64,000 nt of DNA, taken from assembly GCA_050251945.1 (NCBI GenBank), contig JBFWLW010000006.1:32001-96000 (forward strand). The letters run 5' to 3'. The DNA is from Deferribacterales bacterium (GTDB lineage: Bacteria > Chrysiogenota > Deferribacteres > Deferribacterales > Geovibrionaceae). The notes under the pieces are model-generated. The model made no database searches, was not told the origin of the DNA, and saw nothing but the letters and a program-made list of their open reading frames with translations. Shown in pieces: positions 34,632 to 42,449 of the stretch. Position numbers and translations under genes: made by a program. Numbering within the stretch: the first letter of the stretch is position 1; each line of letters starts with the position of its first letter.

Positions 34632-35246
34632 TTACCCGATGGGCAGAACTGTTTTTTTGTAAACTTCGTTGAGAACCTGAGCCGCACCTGCATACATAGC
34701 AGAGAGACCGCAGAGAACGCCTTCAAATCCGGCGAATTTTTTGATGGATGCGCTTTCAAACATATCGCCTATGGCAAGAAGCATGAACAGTATCACAAGC
34801 AGGAAGAAAACAACCTGAAGAGCTTTGTTCAGCTTGAAAGTACCTATGAAAAGAATGAGAGAGAAGAAGCCCCACAGAAACAGATAAGCAGACATTGCCA
34901 CTGTGTCGGGTTTCTCAAATCCCATTTTAGGAAGGACTATTATACCAACGAGGGTAAGCCAGAAAAGTCCGTATGATGTAAAGGCTAATGTGCCGAATGT
35001 ATTTTTCTTTTTCCACTCCATCATGCCCACGATGATCTGTCCGAGACCGCCGTAGAAGATACCCATTGCAAGGATTCCGCTATCCATCGCAAAAAGACCG
35101 ATATTGTGCAGGTTAAGAAGAATGGTTGTCAGACCGAAACCCATAAGCCCGAGAGGAGCAGGATTTGCGGTTGTGTCTGCGAGAACTGTTTCCGCAATCT
35201 GTCCGATAGCCGCGTCTGTATTCACAGCTTCAACTTTGTTGCTCAT
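34632..35246 (-). CDS. satP: Acetate/succinate uptake channel SatP (GPR1/FUN34/YaaH)
   Basis: ANPAPLGLMGFG signature, YGGLGQ, NTFGTLAFTSYGLFW. Confidence 0.95.
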   Translation of the reverse strand: MSNKVEAVNTDAAIGQIAETVLADTTANPAPLGLMGFGLTTILLNLHNIGLFAMDSGILAMGIFYGGLGQIIVGMMEWKKKNTFGTLAFTSYGLFWLTLVGIIVLPKMGFEKPDTVAMSAYLFLWGFFSLILFIGTFKLNKALQVVFFLLVILFMLLAIGDMFESASIKKFAGFEGVLCGLSAMYAGAAQVLNEVYKKTVLPIG

Positions 35247-36170
35247 ATTCTACCTCCAAAGTGATAATGACTAATCATCAATAAACTTGCGTATTTTCCA
35301 GTTTATCAACCTTTGCTGATTTCTATATACAAACGGTTTTATGACAATGCAATAACTATTTATTCCGAGTGAACAAGGTTAATTAATGCTATATAGTTTA
35401 AGAACATAGTTCTATATTTACAGCATACGCTCTATTAATATTTAAATAAGGCTTTTACTGTATTGTTCAGCATACATTCATCTTTTTATGCACCGGAAAT
35501 GTCCCATTAAAATTACATTATGTTCTATTTTAATTTTTTTATGTCGGATGAAAAATTTTTGCTTACCGCTGACAAATTTTGTCATATGCAACCCTTATTC
35601 TGCGTATTTTACGCCTATAATGAATCTGTAAACACTAATGGTTAATCGAATCACCTTTAAAAGCCATTTGACAGGTTTTCTGTACAGCAGCGCAATAAAG
35701 TTGAGAGAATATATAGAGAATAGAACTATTAATAAAAAAATACAAAACTTTGTTTCTTTTACATTAATTTTGACAAAGCACGAGGCTGTTCTTATTCACA
35801 GTAAATGCTATATTTACAGCTATTATTGACCTACTTTAATGTTTATAACAGATTACTATTTATAACCATAGAAAAACAACAAAAGGTAAGCGGCCTTATT
35901 TTCCATGCTGATAATACACCAAAATGTTTACCAGTTATTACCGCCGTCAGAACGTATGGCAGTAATGATTAGTCAAAATACATGTTAATGATCGTATTAA
36001 CACAGATAAAACAAATTCAGGCATTTATTAAATCAGACTACTATCAGTCTCTTACATGCTTCCAACAGGGATTTTAAATTTAATATTTTTTTTGAAATTA
36101 AATTATCCTGCCATTCCAACCATTTCCGAATTTAAACAAATAAAGATTAGTTTGCGAAACATTATTTATG

Positions 36171-36199
36171 TTGACACCAAAATTAATTTACGAAATAAT
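36171..36199 (+). promoter_or_regulatory. sigma70-type promoter of the Phe-leader transcript
   Basis: TTGACA-17 nt-AATAAT; predicted +1 near 36206. Confidence 0.7.
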
Positions 36200-36205
36200 C
36201 TATCC

Positions 36206-36280
36206 ATGAATATGAACAGAACTTTCGCTGAAACCTCTTTTTTCTTTTTTGGTTTCTTTTGGTGCTCAGCCTTTGAGTAG
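36206..36280 (+). CDS. Phe-rich attenuation leader peptide (24 aa)
   Basis: MNMNRTFAETSFFFFGFFWCSAFE*: 8 Phe, 1 Trp; followed by antiterminator/terminator. Confidence 0.82.
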   Translation: MNMNRTFAETSFFFFGFFWCSAFE

Positions 36281-36345
36281 ACCGTGGAGTTCTGCACGAT
36301 AAGCTTGCAAAGGGCTGTGAGAACGAACTCACAGCCCTTTTTTTT
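36265..36345 (+). terminator. Attenuator: antiterminator (36265-36275 with 36308-36321) vs intrinsic terminator (36309-36345)
   Basis: AAAGGGCTGTGAG-AACGAA-CTCACAGCCCTTT(TTTTT), T8 run at 36338-36345; CTCAGCCTTTG complementary to the 5' arm. Confidence 0.85.
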
Positions 36346-36388
36346 GGCTTTAAATCAGTTCGGAAACATATATCGGAGGTATTTTAAG

Positions 36389-37501
36389 ATGAAGAAAACG
36401 GTAATTACGGTTCTTATGCTTCTTGTCTCGGTATGCGCCTACGCCGAGATAAAAATCGGTGCTCTTCTGGCGCTCTCAGGTCCTATCTCAAACCTTGGAA
36501 AGCCCGGTCAGGAGATCATCGACGGTGTCATCGCCGAGGCAAACAAAACGAAAATGCTGGGTGATAAGATAACTGTGGTAACATACGACACCCAGTCGCT
36601 CCCTGACAGGGCGCAGACATATGCAAAGAAGCTGATCGCCAAGGACAGGGTTGACGTTATAGTCGGTCCCAACGGAACCGGCGAGGCGCTCTCTGTTTTA
36701 GGCGAAGCGATGTCCTCCAAAACGCCGATGATGGCATTCGCCGGAGGAACATCAGTTGTAATGCCTGTCCGCCCCTACGTTTTCAAATCCCCCCAGACAA
36801 CCTCAACAGCAATCGAAAAAGCTTTCAACTATCTCAAGAAAAAAGGAATAACAAAAATTGCCGTCGCCGCTGACGCAACGGGTTTCGGTCAGGACGGTCT
36901 CGACCAGATAAACAAGTATTCCAAAGGTTTTACTATTACAGGCATTGAAAAGTTCAACGCAACCGACAACGACGTGACAACGCAGATGTCAAAACTGCTT
37001 GCCGCAAAACCGCAGGCGGTTGTGATATGGACAGTGGGCAGAGCAGGCGCGATAGCCGCAAAAAGCCTGCGCGCGCTTGATCCCAACATACTTATGGTTC
37101 AATCCCACGGCATAGCCGACAACTCTTACCTGAAACTTGCGGGAGCCGCCGCAGAAAACACCGTCATGCCCTCTGTTAAACTGACAGTGGCATCAAGCCT
37201 CCCCGCAAACGACCCCCAGAAAAAAACAATCGACGCATTCATCAAAAAGTACGGTAAACTCATAGACGAAACTTCCGTCCACGCGAGCTATGCTTACGAC
37301 GGTATCAACCTTGTCCTCGCCGCTCTGAAAAAAGCTAAGGCAGAGAAGATACCTCTTCAGCAGGCGATGGAGAAGATAACCAATTTCGTCGGTGTAACAG
37401 GCGTTTACAACATGAGCAAAACAGACCACTGCGGTCTTGACCTCTCTTCAATGGTCATCGTTAAGGTGAAAGACGGCAAATTCGTTCTGGAAGAGATGTG
37501 A
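36389..37501 (+). CDS. ABC substrate-binding protein, LivK/PBP1 class, aromatic-acid-binding (CouP/RPA1789-like)
   Basis: KIGALLALSGP, YDTQS, DVIVGP, GVYNMSKTDHCGLD; signal peptide; GGAGGT RBS. Confidence 0.82.
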   Translation: MKKTVITVLMLLVSVCAYAEIKIGALLALSGPISNLGKPGQEIIDGVIAEANKTKMLGDKITVVTYDTQSLPDRAQTYAKKLIAKDRVDVIVGPNGTGEALSVLGEAMSSKTPMMAFAGGTSVVMPVRPYVFKSPQTTSTAIEKAFNYLKKKGITKIAVAADATGFGQDGLDQINKYSKGFTITGIEKFNATDNDVTTQMSKLLAAKPQAVVIWTVGRAGAIAAKSLRALDPNILMVQSHGIADNSYLKLAGAAAENTVMPSVKLTVASSLPANDPQKKTIDAFIKKYGKLIDETSVHASYAYDGINLVLAALKKAKAEKIPLQQAMEKITNFVGVTGVYNMSKTDHCGLDLSSMVIVKVKDGKFVLEEM

Positions 37502-37549
37502 TTTAACTGGAATAACATGACTTAACATATTATAAAAGGTTACGGATAT

Positions 37550-37625
37550 GAGACTGCTTCGTCCTTTCAGTCCTCGCAGAGACAAACACCAGTCTTCGCG
37601 AGGAGCACCAGCGACGCGGCGATCT
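37550..37625. repeat. REP-like inverted doublet, family A
   Basis: GAGACTGCTTCG..CTCGCAGAGAC-GTCTTCGCGAG..CGCGGCGATCT. Confidence 0.85.
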
Positions 37626-37659
37626 AAATTCTGCCGTAACCTTTATTCCGGAGGAACAT

Positions 37660-38772
37660 ATGAAAAAAGTTCTCATAGCCGCATCTGTGCTTCTTCTAAG
37701 CATATCTGCATATGCAGAGGTGAAGATAGGTGCGCTGCTGGCTCTTACAGGTCCTATATCCAACATCGGCAAGCCTTCACAGGAGATACTGGAGGGCGTG
37801 ATAGCCGATGCCAACAAAGCGAACTTCATGGGCGAACCCATCACCCTTGCGGCATACGACACACAGGGGATGCCCGATAAAACAATGATGTTTGCCAAGA
37901 AATTAATAAACAAAGACAAGGTTGACGTTATAGTCGGTCCAACATCCACAGGCGAGGCAATGTCCGTTATCGGCACCATCATGGATGCCCGGACACCCAC
38001 AATGGGATTCGTCGGCGGCACGCCCCCTGTAGAACCTGTACGCCAGTACATGTTCAAGTCTCCCCAGAAAACATCCACAGCCGTTGAAAAAACTTTCGGC
38101 TACCTGAAAAAGAAGGGATGGACAAAGATAGGCGTTGTTGTGGACGCAACAGGTTTCGGTCAGGACGGACTTGACCAGATAAACAAATACGCCGCCGGAT
38201 TCACAATCACAGGCGTTGAAAAGTTCAACATGACAGACACCGACATGACGACCCAGATGAAAAAAATACTGGATACCAAACCTCAGGCGATTGTGGTGTG
38301 GACAGTGGGCAAAGCGGGTGCAGTAGCCGCGAAGAGCCTGCGCGCGCTGGATAATGACATCCCGCTGATCCAGTCACACGGCATAGCCGACTTCTCATAT
38401 ACAAAACTTGCAGGCGCTGCGGCGGAAGGTTCCATAATGCCGGCACTTAAGATAGTCGTCGCAAAACAGCTTCCCGCGAACGACCCCCAGAAAAAGGCAA
38501 TAGACCTTTTCAACAAACGCTACGGCAAACTGATAAATGAAACATCCGTACACGCAATTTACGCATACGACGGCATAAACCTGATGCTGAACGCTATGAA
38601 ACGTGCAAAAAACGAAAAGATAAGCATCGTTCAGGCGCTTGAGACAACAAAGAATTTTGCCGGAGCAACAGGCGTTTATAACATAACCAAAACAGACCAC
38701 TGCGGACTGGATATGTCCTCTCTGGTCATGGTCAGGGTTAAGAACGGTCAGTTTGTTCTTGAAGATATGTAA
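37660..38772 (+). CDS. ABC substrate-binding protein, tandem paralogue of 36389-37501
   Basis: Colinear similarity end to end (FKSPQ, DATGFGQDGLDQINKY, QSHGIAD, DHCGLD). Confidence 0.85.
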   Translation: MKKVLIAASVLLLSISAYAEVKIGALLALTGPISNIGKPSQEILEGVIADANKANFMGEPITLAAYDTQGMPDKTMMFAKKLINKDKVDVIVGPTSTGEAMSVIGTIMDARTPTMGFVGGTPPVEPVRQYMFKSPQKTSTAVEKTFGYLKKKGWTKIGVVVDATGFGQDGLDQINKYAAGFTITGVEKFNMTDTDMTTQMKKILDTKPQAIVVWTVGKAGAVAAKSLRALDNDIPLIQSHGIADFSYTKLAGAAAEGSIMPALKIVVAKQLPANDPQKKAIDLFNKRYGKLINETSVHAIYAYDGINLMLNAMKRAKNEKISIVQALETTKNFAGATGVYNITKTDHCGLDMSSLVMVRVKNGQFVLEDM

Positions 38773-38777
38773 AACTC

Positions 38778-38807
38778 AACGAGGGAGGCATTCGCCTCCC
38801 TTGTTTT
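38778..38807 (+). terminator. Intrinsic terminator-like hairpin after second SBP
   Basis: AACGAGGGAGGC-ATTC-GCCTCCCTTGTTTT. Confidence 0.6.
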
Positions 38808-38810
38808 AAG

Positions 38811-38900
38811 TCCCACTTTGTAAAAGGGGGATTTAGGGGGATTTTCTTTCCGGCTTTTCAATAACAAATCCACCCCGCCCCTCCTTTGTTAAAGGAGGGA
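38811..38900. repeat. Palindromic intergenic repeat family B, copy 3
   Basis: TCCCACTTTGTAAAAGGGGGATTTAGGGGGATTT...AAATCCACCCCGCCCCTCCTTTGTTAAAGGAGGG. Confidence 0.85.
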
Positions 38901-38978
38901 GAAAATCAGCTTTTTTCTTTAAATTCTTATTTCATTAGTGTACTATCTCATTCTGTCATTAATTTTACGGTGATTCAG

Positions 38979-40736
38979 ATGGTAAACGGTTTTTTTCTTG
39001 GCAACGAACTGATTGCTCTTGCCGCTGTTGATTCGGGAGTCAAAAGCGCATACGCCTATCCCGGAACCCCTTCAAGCGAGATACTCTCCGCTTTTTCAAA
39101 ATTTGCGCCCGAGCGCTATGCCCAGTGGTCGCTGAACGAAAAGATAGCTCTTGAGCTTGCCGCGGGCGAAGCGATATCCGGTTCATACACACTCTGCTGT
39201 ATGAAGATGGTGGGACTGAACGTAGCCGCCGACCCGCTTTTCAGCGTGGCATATACCGGCGTCGCAGGCGCGATGGTGCTTGTTTCGGCGGACGACCCCG
39301 GACCCTACAGCAGCCAGACGGAACAGGACAGCCGCATGTATGCCGTCAGTGCGAAGGTGCCGGTTCTCGACCCCTGCAACCCTCAGGATGCGTACCGCCT
39401 GACAAGGCTCGCATATCAGATATCCGAAAAATACCGTCTTCCTGTAATGGTCAGACCCGTTATGCGTGTCTGCCACTCACGCCAGAATTTTATGGCTGGC
39501 GACGTTTCAGAGCAGCAATCCCGTGAAACGGTTCTGCATGGAACGTTTCAGAAAGATACTCCGCGCTGGGCGGCGACACCGAAGTTCCGCCGCATCCTCC
39601 ACGAAAAGCTCAACAAAAACCTTGATCTGCTCGCCGCAGAGATGGCGCCGAAAATACCGGAAAAAAGATACGACATGGCAGTTGTCGCCTCAGGCTATGC
39701 ATACGCCATGGCGAAAGACGTTATAAATGAGATGAACCTTCCGTTCGACATGATAAAGGTCGACATGCCCTTCCCTCTGGACAAACAGTTTGTCATCGAG
39801 GCGGAGATGGTATACGACCGCATCGTCGTTCTTGAAGAGACCTTCCCCGTTATCGAGCATAACTTCACAATAAAAACCGAGGGCAGGCTCACCGGACTTG
39901 TCCCCTCCGAAGGGGAGCTTACTGCGGACATCATCGCCGACATCCTGTTCAAAACGGCAGGAATGACCCGCGAAGTTGCAAATACCGGAATAAGCACATC
40001 CGAAACACCTGTTCAGCTTAAGCCGCGCCTCTGCGCGGGATGCGGGCACAGACCCGCTTTCTATGCCATGAAGCTTGCCGCTCCGAAGGGCATCTTCCCC
40101 GGCGATATAGGCTGTTACACCCTTGGCGTTAATCTGAACGCTGTCGATACATGCATCTGCATGGGCGCTTCCATCACTTTCGCGGAAGCCATGAAGCGCT
40201 CCAACCCCGACAAACCCGTGATATGCACAATAGGCGATTCAACTTTCTTCCACACCGGCGTCACGGGACTTACAAACGCCGTGGTCAACAGCGCGCCCAT
40301 AGTCGTGGCGGTGCTGGATAATGAAACCACAGCAATGACAGGCTTTCAGCCCGTTCCCCACAAAACTGGCAAACTCACTATTGAGCTGGCTTGTCAGGGC
40401 GCAGGCGTCAGATACATAGTAAAAGTTGACCCTTATAACCTGAAAAAAGGCGTGGAGGCTCTCAAGCAGGCGCTTGCATACGCGCACACTGACAATTCCC
40501 CTGCGGTGGTGATATTCACCAAAGAATGTGTTACCAAAACGCGGTACAAGAATAAAAAAATTGTTGAAATAAGCGATGCCTGCACCGACTGCTCCATATG
40601 CTATGAGAAGTTCGAGTGTCCGGCAATTTACAGAGACAAAGCGAAGCGCATGGCAAAGATAGACGAAACCGCGTGCGTGGGGTGTATGGTCTGCATTCAG
40701 GTATGCCCGCAGAAGGCCATAGGGGTGAAGAAATGA
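38979..40736 (+). CDS. iorA: Indolepyruvate (aryl-pyruvate):ferredoxin oxidoreductase alpha subunit
   Basis: YPGTPSSEI, NEKIALE, K.VGLNVAADP, LCAGCGHR, GDIGCY, GDSTFFH..LDN (TPP), two C-terminal 4Fe-4S motifs. Confidence 0.93.
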   Translation: MVNGFFLGNELIALAAVDSGVKSAYAYPGTPSSEILSAFSKFAPERYAQWSLNEKIALELAAGEAISGSYTLCCMKMVGLNVAADPLFSVAYTGVAGAMVLVSADDPGPYSSQTEQDSRMYAVSAKVPVLDPCNPQDAYRLTRLAYQISEKYRLPVMVRPVMRVCHSRQNFMAGDVSEQQSRETVLHGTFQKDTPRWAATPKFRRILHEKLNKNLDLLAAEMAPKIPEKRYDMAVVASGYAYAMAKDVINEMNLPFDMIKVDMPFPLDKQFVIEAEMVYDRIVVLEETFPVIEHNFTIKTEGRLTGLVPSEGELTADIIADILFKTAGMTREVANTGISTSETPVQLKPRLCAGCGHRPAFYAMKLAAPKGIFPGDIGCYTLGVNLNAVDTCICMGASITFAEAMKRSNPDKPVICTIGDSTFFHTGVTGLTNAVVNSAPIVVAVLDNETTAMTGFQPVPHKTGKLTIELACQGAGVRYIVKVDPYNLKKGVEALKQALAYAHTDNSPAVVIFTKECVTKTRYKNKKIVEISDACTDCSICYEKFECPAIYRDKAKRMAKIDETACVGCMVCIQVCPQKAIGVKK

Positions 40737-41242
40737 TTCAGGGAATAATTTGCGGAAAAGGCGGACAGGGAGTCATAACCCTTAACGCCATGATAGGCAC
40801 TCTGGCTGCGAACATGGAAATACCCGCAGTATCGGCGGAAACCCACGGCATGGCTATGCGCGGCGGTTCCGTTGCAACGTACATCAAAATAGGCGAATGT
40901 CTCAGCGCCGCTGTTGCGGAAGGCTCTGCGGATTTCATCATCAGCCTCACCAAAGACGAAGCGCTCAGAAATATCAGCTTTATAAAAAAAGACGGGGTCA
41001 TCATCGTTGACACGGATGAACCCTTTGACATAAGCGGAGTGAAAATAATCTCTCTGCCGGCTTCCGACATAGCGGAGGAACAGTTCGGCGGCAGGATATA
41101 CGGCGGGCAGGTGCTTCTTGGCATATTTCTCGGCTGTTTTGACGGTATTGACACCGGAAAAGCACTTGAAATACTGAAAACTGCACCGAAAATAAGCATA
41201 CACGCCATAGAATACGGAGTCAGATATGCACAAACTCACTGA
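40733..41242 (+). CDS. iorB: Indolepyruvate oxidoreductase beta subunit
   Basis: GKGGQGV, ETHGMAMRGGSV; ATGA overlap with iorA. Confidence 0.9.
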   Translation: MIQGIICGKGGQGVITLNAMIGTLAANMEIPAVSAETHGMAMRGGSVATYIKIGECLSAAVAEGSADFIISLTKDEALRNISFIKKDGVIIVDTDEPFDISGVKIISLPASDIAEEQFGGRIYGGQVLLGIFLGCFDGIDTGKALEILKTAPKISIHAIEYGVRYAQTH

Positions 41243-42449
41243 CATACAGCTTTTAAAGCTGGGTACGACACTGCACCACATAAAAAAGGCAAACCCTTTC
41301 TATTTTCAAAGATACGAAACGGATAGAATCACCTCTTACGAAGACCTCACAAAAATGCCCTTTATAACAAAAGATATACTCCGTCAGGGATACCCCTTTG
41401 CATATGCGTGTGCAGACACAAAAAGCTGTGTGCGGATGCATATGTCAAGCGGCACCACAGGCAAACCCATCATAAACCCCATGACCGAAGGGGACGTCAA
41501 CCAGTGGGGCGAGATAATGGCGCGCTGTTACACCACGGCAGGTGTAACCGGCGAGGACACAGTTCAGATCACCCCGTCGTTCGGACTTTTTAACGGCGGT
41601 TTCGGTTTCCACTACGGCGCAGAGAGGCTGAAAAGCTTCATAATCCCCATGGGTGCAGGACGTTCACTGCTCCAGCTCCAGTTCATAAAAGACCTTGAAA
41701 CTACGTGCCTCTGCGCAATCGCTTCCTATCCTCTGAGGCTTATTGAAGTTGCCAAACAGGAAGGCTTTAGCTTTAGAGAGACGAAACTACGCGTGGGCAT
41801 CTTCGGTGCTGAAACGTGGACCGACGGCATACGCAGGCGTATCGAAAAAGAGATGGGTATCGAGACGTTCGACATCATAGGCATGACAGAGACAGGCGGC
41901 GTGGGGCTTGGCATAGACTGCAAAGACCACAGCGGAATACACGTCTGGGACGACCACTACATTGTCGAGATAGTCGATCCGGAAACAGGCGAGCCACTGC
42001 CCGACGGGGTGGAAGGCGAAATGGTGGTGACAACGCTCACCCGCGAAGGTCTGCCGCTGATACGCTACCGCACCCGCGACATCACAAAGGTTATAAGCCG
42101 CGAACCCTGTAAATGCGGACTTCATACGCTCAAGATAGCCAGACTGAAAGGCAGAACAGACGATATGCTCAAGGTGAAAGGCGTTAACTTCTACCCTGCA
42201 CAGATAGAATCCATCCTGATGGAGTTCACCGAAATAGGCGAAGAATACCGCATCATCCTTGACAAGAAGAAGGGTAAAGGGGACGTGACCCTTGCCGTTG
42301 AAACAGATACAATCACCGACGATGCAAAGGACAGACTTGACACGAAGCTTTACGATTTCCTCGGTTTCCGCGTGGATGTGCAGTATCTGAAACCGGGTAC
42401 TCTGGAGCGTTCCGCAGGAAAAGCCATCAGGGTTGTTGATAACAGATAG
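41226..42449 (+). CDS. paaK: Phenylacetate--CoA ligase family
   Basis: HMSSGTTGKP, GLFNGGFGFHYGAE, GAETW, GMTE, PLIRYRTRD, GRTDDM. Confidence 0.9.
   Translation: MHKLTDIQLLKLGTTLHHIKKANPFYFQRYETDRITSYEDLTKMPFITKDILRQGYPFAYACADTKSCVRMHMSSGTTGKPIINPMTEGDVNQWGEIMARCYTTAGVTGEDTVQITPSFGLFNGGFGFHYGAERLKSFIIPMGAGRSLLQLQFIKDLETTCLCAIASYPLRLIEVAKQEGFSFRETKLRVGIFGAETWTDGIRRRIEKEMGIETFDIIGMTETGGVGLGIDCKDHSGIHVWDDHYIVEIVDPETGEPLPDGVEGEMVVTTLTREGLPLIRYRTRDITKVISREPCKCGLHTLKIARLKGRTDDMLKVKGVNFYPAQIESILMEFTEIGEEYRIILDKKKGKGDVTLAVETDTITDDAKDRLDTKLYDFLGFRVDVQYLKPGTLERSAGKAIRVVDNR

Follow-up and report, generated by a model that had tools for sequence, protein, structure and literature searches.

A likely phenylalanine-codon leader-peptide attenuator ahead of a binding-protein–iorAB–paaK operon in Seleniivibrio

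The trpL leader of Escherichia coli is understood as a set of three alternative RNA pairings—1:2, 2:3, and 3:4. The pheL-pheA and pheM-pheST leaders of Gammaproteobacteria (Rfam family RF01859; PMC3082878) combine a run of phenylalanine (Phe) codons with alternative helices and an intrinsic terminator, and read-through is expected upon starvation for charged tRNA-Phe. In mycobacteria, leaderless short open reading frames (ORFs) rich in cysteine (Cys) were reported as Cys-responsive attenuators (10.1101/834739). According to a survey from 2010, which contributed Firmicutes, leader peptides had until then been known from no phyla other than Proteobacteria and Actinobacteria (PMC2965389). Here, we describe a candidate from a further phylum. 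In a 64,000-nucleotide (nt) stretch of DNA (hereafter, the window) from the genome under study (G000; genus Seleniivibrio, Deferribacterota), positions 36206–36345 precede genes for two periplasmic binding proteins (SBP1 and SBP2), an IorAB-type oxidoreductase, and a PaaK-like ligase. Judging from its sequence elements and their conservation, we consider it likely that transcription is attenuated here by a ribosome on a leader-peptide ORF, with charged tRNA-Phe as the signal sensed.

With pheL and pheM, the locus has in common the Phe-codon run, the predicted alternative helices, the intrinsic terminator, and the read-through to be expected when charged tRNA-Phe runs short. It differs from them in its phylum, in a leader that is predicted to be leaderless and devoid of a Shine-Dalgarno sequence, in the lack of an Rfam match, and in its target, which is SBP-SBP-iorAB-paaK rather than pheA or pheST. 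The likeness to trpL lies in three proposed states, namely an anti-antiterminator in which leader codons take part, a putative antiterminator with bases in common with the 5’ arm of the terminator, and the terminator itself; here, however, the regulatory codons sit in the loop of the 1:2 helix instead of forming part of segment 1, and no one 2:3 pairing stands out. Like the mycobacterial polycysteine ORFs (10.1101/834739), the Seleniivibrio leader would be a short, leaderless ORF in which one amino acid abounds and which stands as the first cistron and controls the operon downstream, whereas amino acid and phylum differ. The mechanism we propose is thus the classical one, and what is new is the target operon, the phylum—in the open-access literature, we found no such leader described in Deferribacterota—and, probably, the leaderless start. 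A search of the open-access literature returned no report that joins phenylacetate-coenzyme A (CoA) ligase with attenuation and a leader.

An initial annotation of this DNA had pointed to a 24-codon ORF with eight Phe codons and one tryptophan (Trp) codon, including the run FFFFGFF, and to a perfect 13-bp terminator hairpin followed by a T run; both are present as claimed (Table 1). Within the T-rich tract of G000, the frame of the ORF encodes six Phe, as compared to three and four in the two remaining frames. A gap of 28 nt separates the stop codon from the terminator stem, and the first three T of the T run (36338–36345) lie inside that stem. The hairpin was the one terminator-like site in the interval 35200–36500, where shuffled sequences contained 0.5 such sites on average (standard deviation 0.6). 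As a whole, the leader (36200–36350) folds at −50.3 kcal/mol, compared with a shuffle mean of −34.1 kcal/mol (standard deviation 3.7), and none of 200 shuffles was as stable. An Rfam scan of 35200–36500 at E values up to 10 returned eight matches, all of them sub-threshold hits to eukaryotic, viral, or small-RNA models (26.4 bits for the top one, where the gathering score is 50), and no bacterial cis-regulator: neither Phe_leader (RF01859) or any other leader family, nor a T-box or another known riboswitch, had a match in that interval.

Ahead of the ORF lies a sigma-70-type promoter. Since promoter-like sites in 35200–36500 are not more numerous than in shuffles (four found versus a shuffle mean of 5.6), the case for this promoter derives from its score and its conservation rather than from site counts: its −35 TTGACA and the ATAAT of its −10 box are invariant in the alignment of all seven genomes of the genus. 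Between the end of the −10 box and the leader ATG lie 6 nt, which leaves no room for a Shine-Dalgarno sequence, so that a translated ORF would need a leaderless or near-leaderless mRNA. With the transcription start placed at or beside the ATG on the basis of the promoter position, the leader mRNA is probably of this kind. No promoter-like site was found between the terminator and SBP1, and SBP1 must therefore be transcribed through the terminator.

A blastn search of 61 related genomes recovered the leader in four of six congeners, at 79–93% identity. In the remaining two, G001 and G003, the leader was missed by blastn and found by inspection upstream of the orthologous SBP gene (the proteins being ~70% identical). 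The comparative set thus comprised seven genus genomes in two clades, one with five members (G000, G002, G004, G005, and G006), the other with G001 and G003. In the latter pair, the leader ORF has 28 codons (MIENNVNTLFSGFFFSFFFCFWHSDCHE and MKKNNVNSLFSDFFFSFFFCFWHIDCRR), follows the same promoter with its ATG 7 nt past the −10 box, and stops close ahead of a segment whose pairing partner lies upstream of the Phe run; the terminators of the two have interrupted stems. The in-frame run reads FFFSFFFCFW in G001 and G003 and FFFFGFFW in G000. The difference in ORF length between the clades, 12 nt or four codons, is a multiple of three, and the frame set by the ATG is the Phe-richest in both (in G003, seven Phe against four and a stop in the other frames). 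Leader, frame, start, stop, Phe run, promoter, and terminator are kept in 7/7 genomes, with substitutions in the terminator stem giving G-U pairs. This comparison supports the Phe-codon attenuator at the core of the initial annotation, which had also suggested looking for conserved Phe-rich small ORFs upstream of orthologous binding-protein genes: within the genus they exist, and the relatives do not merely keep an out-of-frame T tract.

Alignment of the five-genome clade revealed the N- and C-terminal leader codons to vary with amino-acid changes (SAFE, SASE, SSPE, SDCHE, and IDCRR are seen over both clades), while everything from the Phe run through CUCA is invariant, as are the 15 bases that follow the stop codon. 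At the peptide level, the Phe run and the Trp are conserved and the ends are free to change. Positions 36230–36272 harbored no variant in the five genomes or in metagenome contigs, nor did 36281–36299 in the metagenome contigs, and DNA contigs from four sequencing runs contained solely variants already known from the genus genomes. This pattern bears on the idea that the product of the ORF is a small membrane peptide, hydrophobic and active as a protein, with the hairpin as its own terminator and the SBP operon expressed through leaky read-through. A hydrophobic product of 24–28 residues that is conserved in the genus would suit that idea, but conservation is confined to the Phe run and the Trp while the terminal residues change freely, no promoter-like site for SBP1 follows the terminator, and a functional peptide gives no role to the helix that encloses the run (see below). 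We regard it as quite improbable.

The Trp codon directly after the Phe run (36260–36262) is kept in both leader clades, as FFW and CFW. Since IOR enzymes (arylpyruvate:ferredoxin oxidoreductases of the IorAB type) also act on indolepyruvate, this codon could, speculatively, add some sensitivity to Trp.

The best supported RNA pairing element of the leader is one that was absent from the initial annotation, namely a helix between segments 1 and 2 (the 1:2 helix; Table 1). It consists of 11 pairs with one bulge and encloses the Phe run. We compared duplex energies with those of mononucleotide shuffles, 500 for each of the seven genomes, and the energy of the 1:2 duplex was reached by 50, 3, 19, 12, 16, 0, and 2 of them, respectively, figures that convince for most genomes and are borderline for G000. 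Segment 2 is invariant in five genomes and the metagenome contigs; its 3’ part can also pair with the 5’ arm and loop of the terminator (candidate B below). G001 and G003 form an equivalent helix from different bases, GUGAAC.CCCUGUUU with GAAUAGGGGUUCGC. Between the clades, CAGAAC/GUUCUG is replaced by GUGAAC/GUUCGC, that is, two pairs are altered on both sides with pairing retained.

Three overlapping antiterminator candidates, here termed A, B, and C, could sequester the terminator 5’ arm. Candidate A goes back to the initial annotation, which had proposed that CTCAGCCTTTG, at 36265–36275, pairs with this arm via a bulged duplex. The segment is there and the pairing in fact amounts to eight contiguous pairs, but it does not exceed chance (105 of 500 shuffles). 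Its duplex energy ranged from −12.7 to −14.3 kcal/mol, varying with the strands entered in the duplex fold, and its pairing probability was 0.44–0.64 with the ribosomal A site at 36248. In G002, C replaces U at 36273 and G replaces A at 36311, a matched pair of changes that suits candidate A; G004 and G005 have the first change without its match. Candidate B shares GUUCU with the 1:2 helix. In G000, G002, G004, and G005, its variants fall on unpaired positions or give G-U pairs, and G006 adds two mismatches (by eye); G001 and G003 offer a comparable pairing. Candidate C is a weak CUUUUG:CAAAGG pairing seen by eye only.

Folding the leader with and without a masked ribosome footprint, as the initial annotation had recommended, gave a divided answer. 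In nascent folds, taken before the 3’ arm of the terminator is made and with the A site at 36239 or 36248, the 5’ arm pairs with 36267–36274 (candidate A) or 36289–36306 (candidate B), and with no ribosome only an inner hairpin forms (−3.9 kcal/mol). The nascent folds behave as the attenuator model needs, with modest discrimination. Full-length folds, on the other hand, always keep the terminator.

Several observations weigh against reading 36206–36345 as an attenuator. The antiterminator is the weak point, as no unique one is established: the best duplex that the region past the Phe run forms with the 5’ arm and loop of the terminator was matched by 105, 167, 59, 212, 14, 295, and 248 of 500 shuffles across the seven genomes, and only in G006 (14/500) is it better than shuffles. 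At equilibrium, the terminator wins under every ribosome mask tried; because full-length folds retain it throughout, equilibrium folding cannot test the switch. A ribosome stalled at the last Phe codons would have segment 1 behind its footprint, not within it, and support for the 1:2 helix is weakest in the very genome under study (50/500 shuffles). The sequence upstream of the leader ATG contains no Shine-Dalgarno motif, and no RNA sequencing run carrying the locus turned up. Lastly, the five-genome clade shows no nucleotide difference within the Phe run, TTT/TTC swaps included, and coding constraint is therefore inseparable from RNA or DNA constraint there.

Some of these points would fit an ORF that is not translated at all, in which case the U-rich tract, the long-range helix, and the terminator would make up a protein- or RNA-dependent attenuator, or else a constitutive partial terminator that damps expression. 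The missing Shine-Dalgarno sequence, the nucleotide-invariant U-rich tract of the five-genome clade, and the lack of a statistically supported antiterminator all agree with such a device. Yet it leaves aside that the distance from the −10 box to the ATG is fixed, that the frame is kept across a 12-nt indel, and that the Phe-maximizing frame and a stop codon just before segment 2 persist in both clades even though the leader DNA of one is undetectable by blastn from the other; nor does any Rfam family match. On balance, we think an untranslated ORF unlikely and continue with the translated, Phe-sensing leader.

The proposed attenuator would work as follows. If the leader is not translated, segment 1 would pair with segment 2, the terminator would form, and transcription would stop ~45 nt before SBP1. 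When Phe is plentiful, a ribosome at the stop codon (36278–36280) would cover about 36263–36293, including strands able to pair with the terminator 5’ arm, with the terminator again as the outcome. When Phe-tRNA is scarce, the ribosome would stall in the FFFFGFF run, which would block the 1:2 helix and leave 36265–36306 free; the freed stretch could then sequester the terminator 5’ arm (through candidate A or B), allowing read-through into SBP1-SBP2-iorA-iorB-paaK. A leader ORF followed by a terminator, together with a long U-rich tract (36237–36260), would also be expected of a UTP-sensing attenuator of the pyrBI type, where RNA polymerase pauses in the U-rich tract at low UTP and ribosome coupling decides on termination. 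The pyrBI leader ORF runs through its terminator. Here, by contrast, 28 nt lie between the end of the ORF and the stem, which puts the terminator beyond direct melting by a ribosome at the stop codon, and the downstream genes have no pyrimidine link; we consider this variant very improbable.

We also screened the whole genome for similar leaders, using a crude scan for small ORFs with at least four of eight identical residues beside a simple terminator, a design that misses terminators with interrupted stems. Among the resulting 175 distinct small ORFs, four were Phe-based, and only the leader at 36206–36280 has at least five Phe in eight codons (six). The two threonine-rich and two other Phe-containing candidates that we inspected were discarded, as by eye they lie within longer coding sequence and have no fitting downstream gene. 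This crude scan therefore yielded no other leader of this kind in the genome.

Outside the genus, a small ORF with at least five Phe in eight codons was found at none of four loci with SBP orthologues and at none of nine loci with iorA orthologues (49–60% identity). The highest count there was four Phe in eight codons, at locus L061 and without a terminator-like site by a simple terminator finder that is insensitive, having also overlooked the terminators of G001 and G003 with their interrupted stems. Short matches to the T-rich run in three other genera (genomes G018, G020, and G025) lie inside long open frames and were dismissed as chance. Scanning metagenomes by SBP alignment gave 310 pattern matches and no relative, and a degenerate leader pattern gave 0 matches. 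In another genus of Deferribacterota (g7), the SBP orthologue (L017–L020) and the iorA orthologue (L056 and L059–L061) occupy separate loci that lack the leader, and a similar GGTTAAAT(A/T)T...TTGAC(T/A) motif near the promoter precedes both. This arrangement suggests that a shared DNA-binding regulator may stand in place of the attenuator in that genus.

Table 1 Features of the leader and the downstream operon (positions in the window)
Feature	Position	Strand	Details
Sigma-70-type promoter	36171–36199	+	TTGACA-17 nt-AATAAT; 11/12 matches; top-scoring site of 35200–36500
Leader ORF	36206–36280	+	ATG 36206, TAG 36278–36280; 24 codons; peptide MNMNRTFAETSFFFFGFFWCSAFE; read directly
Segment 1	36217–36228	+	CAGAACUUUCGC, also written CAGAACUU.CGC; codons 4–8; 5’ strand of the anti-antiterminator helix
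Regulatory Phe codons	36239–36259	+	FFFFGFF; six Phe in a seven-codon run; Trp codon next
Antiterminator candidate A, upstream strand	36267–36274	+	CAGCCUUU; pairs with AAGGGCUG (36310–36317), 8 contiguous pairs
Segment 2	36284–36295	+	GUGGAGUUCUG(C); begins 4 nt past the stop codon; pairs with segment 1
Antiterminator candidate B, upstream strand	36289–36306	+	GUUCU.CAC....AGCUU; pairs with 36312–36324; hairpin 36289–36324, −9.7 kcal/mol
Intrinsic terminator	36309–36345	+	Stem 36309–36321/36328–36340, 13 bp perfect (7 G-C); 6-nt loop; T run; −22.1 kcal/mol
SBP1	36389–37501	+	Peripla_BP_6 periplasmic binding protein; PF13458, E 6.5e-50; preceded by a GGAGG Shine-Dalgarno sequence
SBP2	37660–38772	+	SBP1 paralogue, 68% identity
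IorA-like	38979–40736	+	Arylpyruvate:ferredoxin oxidoreductase alpha subunit; putative start ATG 38979; TIGR03336 (IOR_alpha)
IorB-like	40733–41242	+	Beta subunit; POR gamma-type domain; start overlaps the iorA stop
PaaK-like	41226–42449	+	AMP-forming aryl-acetate-CoA ligase; AMP-binding and AMP-binding_C_2 domains

The arrangement leader-SBP-SBP-iorA-iorB-paaK recurs in G001, G003, and G006. The nearest solved chains to SBP1, like SBP2 a binding protein of putative aromatic-acid type, are 3sg0, 7ylt, and 4dqd (E values of ~1e-36 to 1e-38), of which we take 3sg0 and 4dqd to be structures of Rhodopseudomonas proteins determined with aromatic keto-acids. A paper on the indole-3-acetate-specific binding protein IadK2 (PMC10374108) mentions the code 7ylt, which may belong to that protein. 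As for the enzymes, IOR_alpha is the best NCBIfam match of the IorA-like protein at 579.6 bits, which is under the cut-off of 650.9, and thiamine pyrophosphate and 4Fe-4S domains are present; the IOR_beta models are the best matches of the IorB-like protein, every one of them below its cut-off; and PaaK models fit the ligase best, with 358–362 bits against cut-offs of 646–700. Upstream and divergent lies a channel gene of the GPR1/FUN34/YaaH family, and further neighbors of the operon encode a UPF0014 protein, a glycine-transporter-family protein, and a histidine kinase, with no other aromatic-ring degradation genes seen adjoining. The A+T-rich intergenic region that separates the leader promoter from the divergent YaaH-family gene (35247–36170) is unusually long, at ~920 nt, and has no Rfam match.

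The spacer between SBP1 and SBP2 (158 nt, compared to only ~58–81 nt in congeners) holds a palindromic repeat element within 37525–37650, with its core at ~37548–37625. The repeat has 52 matches in the genome (E up to 0.001) and the spacer folds at −54.5 kcal/mol (z −6.7), so it looks like a repetitive extragenic palindrome or miniature inverted-repeat transposable element-like insertion specific to this genome. The small-ORF scan contained repeated ‘LREERMRRRDLAFS’ pseudo-peptides that recur beside hairpins, which suggests this spacer element as their probable origin. Elsewhere in the genome, a second IorA paralogue (G000:C1:251059-252765; 38% identity) sits inside another operon, with no leader by eye, and a third, orphan Peripla_BP_6 binding protein (G000:C2:306091-307218; 34% identity) has no adjacent permease genes.

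What might such an operon be for? Methanococcus maripaludis has, in IOR acting with aryl acids, a further way to make aromatic amino acids (work of Porat et al. cited in PMC4162585). For Bacteroides, an IOR encoded beside an AMP-forming arylacetate-CoA ligase was argued in 2026 to be possibly anabolic, given that such ligases favor CoA-ester synthesis (PMC13285125, in its discussion of this gene pair). The Seleniivibrio operon resembles both in that an IorAB-type oxidoreductase adjoins an AMP-forming aryl-acetate ligase, and departs from them in that the pair comes together with two periplasmic binding proteins and a likely Phe-codon attenuator, a type of regulation unmentioned in the sections of PMC4162585 and PMC13285125 that deal with these enzymes. 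By analogy, SBP-SBP-IorAB-PaaK-like is probably a phenylacetate-to-Phe salvage system, a reading that we hold with somewhat less confidence than that of the attenuator. Phenylacetate, and perhaps other aryl acids, would be bound and taken up, converted to the CoA thioester, reductively carboxylated to phenylpyruvate, and transaminated to Phe. If the operon makes Phe from an aryl acid, its induction by a shortage of Phe-tRNA follows ordinary biosynthetic logic. The initial annotation had seen in the aryl-acid uptake genes a new, non-biosynthetic class of attenuator target; this is probably wrong, as the operon fits the route from aryl acid via arylpyruvate to aromatic amino acid outlined for these enzymes in parts of PMC4162585 and PMC13285125.

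Three features of the genome sit uneasily with this assignment. The operon contains no ABC (ATP-binding cassette) permease or ATPase genes, and it is on other contigs that LivHM-type permeases are encoded. Between SBP2 and the putative iorA start, a gap of 207 nt holds two G+C-rich hairpins (38782–38801, then TGTTTTAA, and 38880–38901), and because they separate the two genes we can only infer that the attenuator controls iorAB-paaK; they may be mRNA stabilizers or partial terminators, which would set the binding protein above the enzyme level. Furthermore, the genome has a bifunctional pheA (with no leader in its upstream region by eye), so the salvage route is not essential for Phe, although it would spare the de-novo pathway where phenylacetate is available.

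That pheA covers de-novo synthesis could also be taken to mean that the attenuator is real and the operon catabolic, with phenylacetate or related acids serving as a carbon or electron source, or with Phe being fermented oxidatively. In line with this, IOR works oxidatively in peptide fermenters and was reported to take part in the conversion of phenylalanine to phenylacetate in B. thetaiotaomicron (PMC13285125, in its passages on that reaction). However, a Phe-codon leader turns genes on when Phe-tRNA is short, which makes poor sense for Phe breakdown; an AMP-forming ligase favors CoA-ester synthesis (according to the same part of PMC13285125); and no other aromatic-ring degradation genes were seen beside the operon. 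A catabolic role therefore appears rather unlikely to us, and biosynthetic salvage remains the reading we prefer.

Taken together, we tentatively picture a respiring member of the Deferribacterota that, despite having pheA, may use its binding proteins, IorAB, and PaaK-like ligase to rebuild Phe (and, with the conserved Trp codon in mind, perhaps Trp) from scavenged aryl acids when starved for Phe, under a leaderless switch that may have arisen within one genus; this fuller scenario is possible, if somewhat short of probable. The direction in which IOR and PaaK-type ligases run in anaerobes is still argued from enzyme types (as in the relevant part of PMC13285125), and a leader that reads Phe-tRNA would offer independent, testable evidence for the anabolic one. 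The leader would also tie two orphan binding proteins to the IOR/PaaK pathway, extend leader-peptide attenuation to Deferribacterota, and offer a compact, probably leaderless, Phe-responsive switch.

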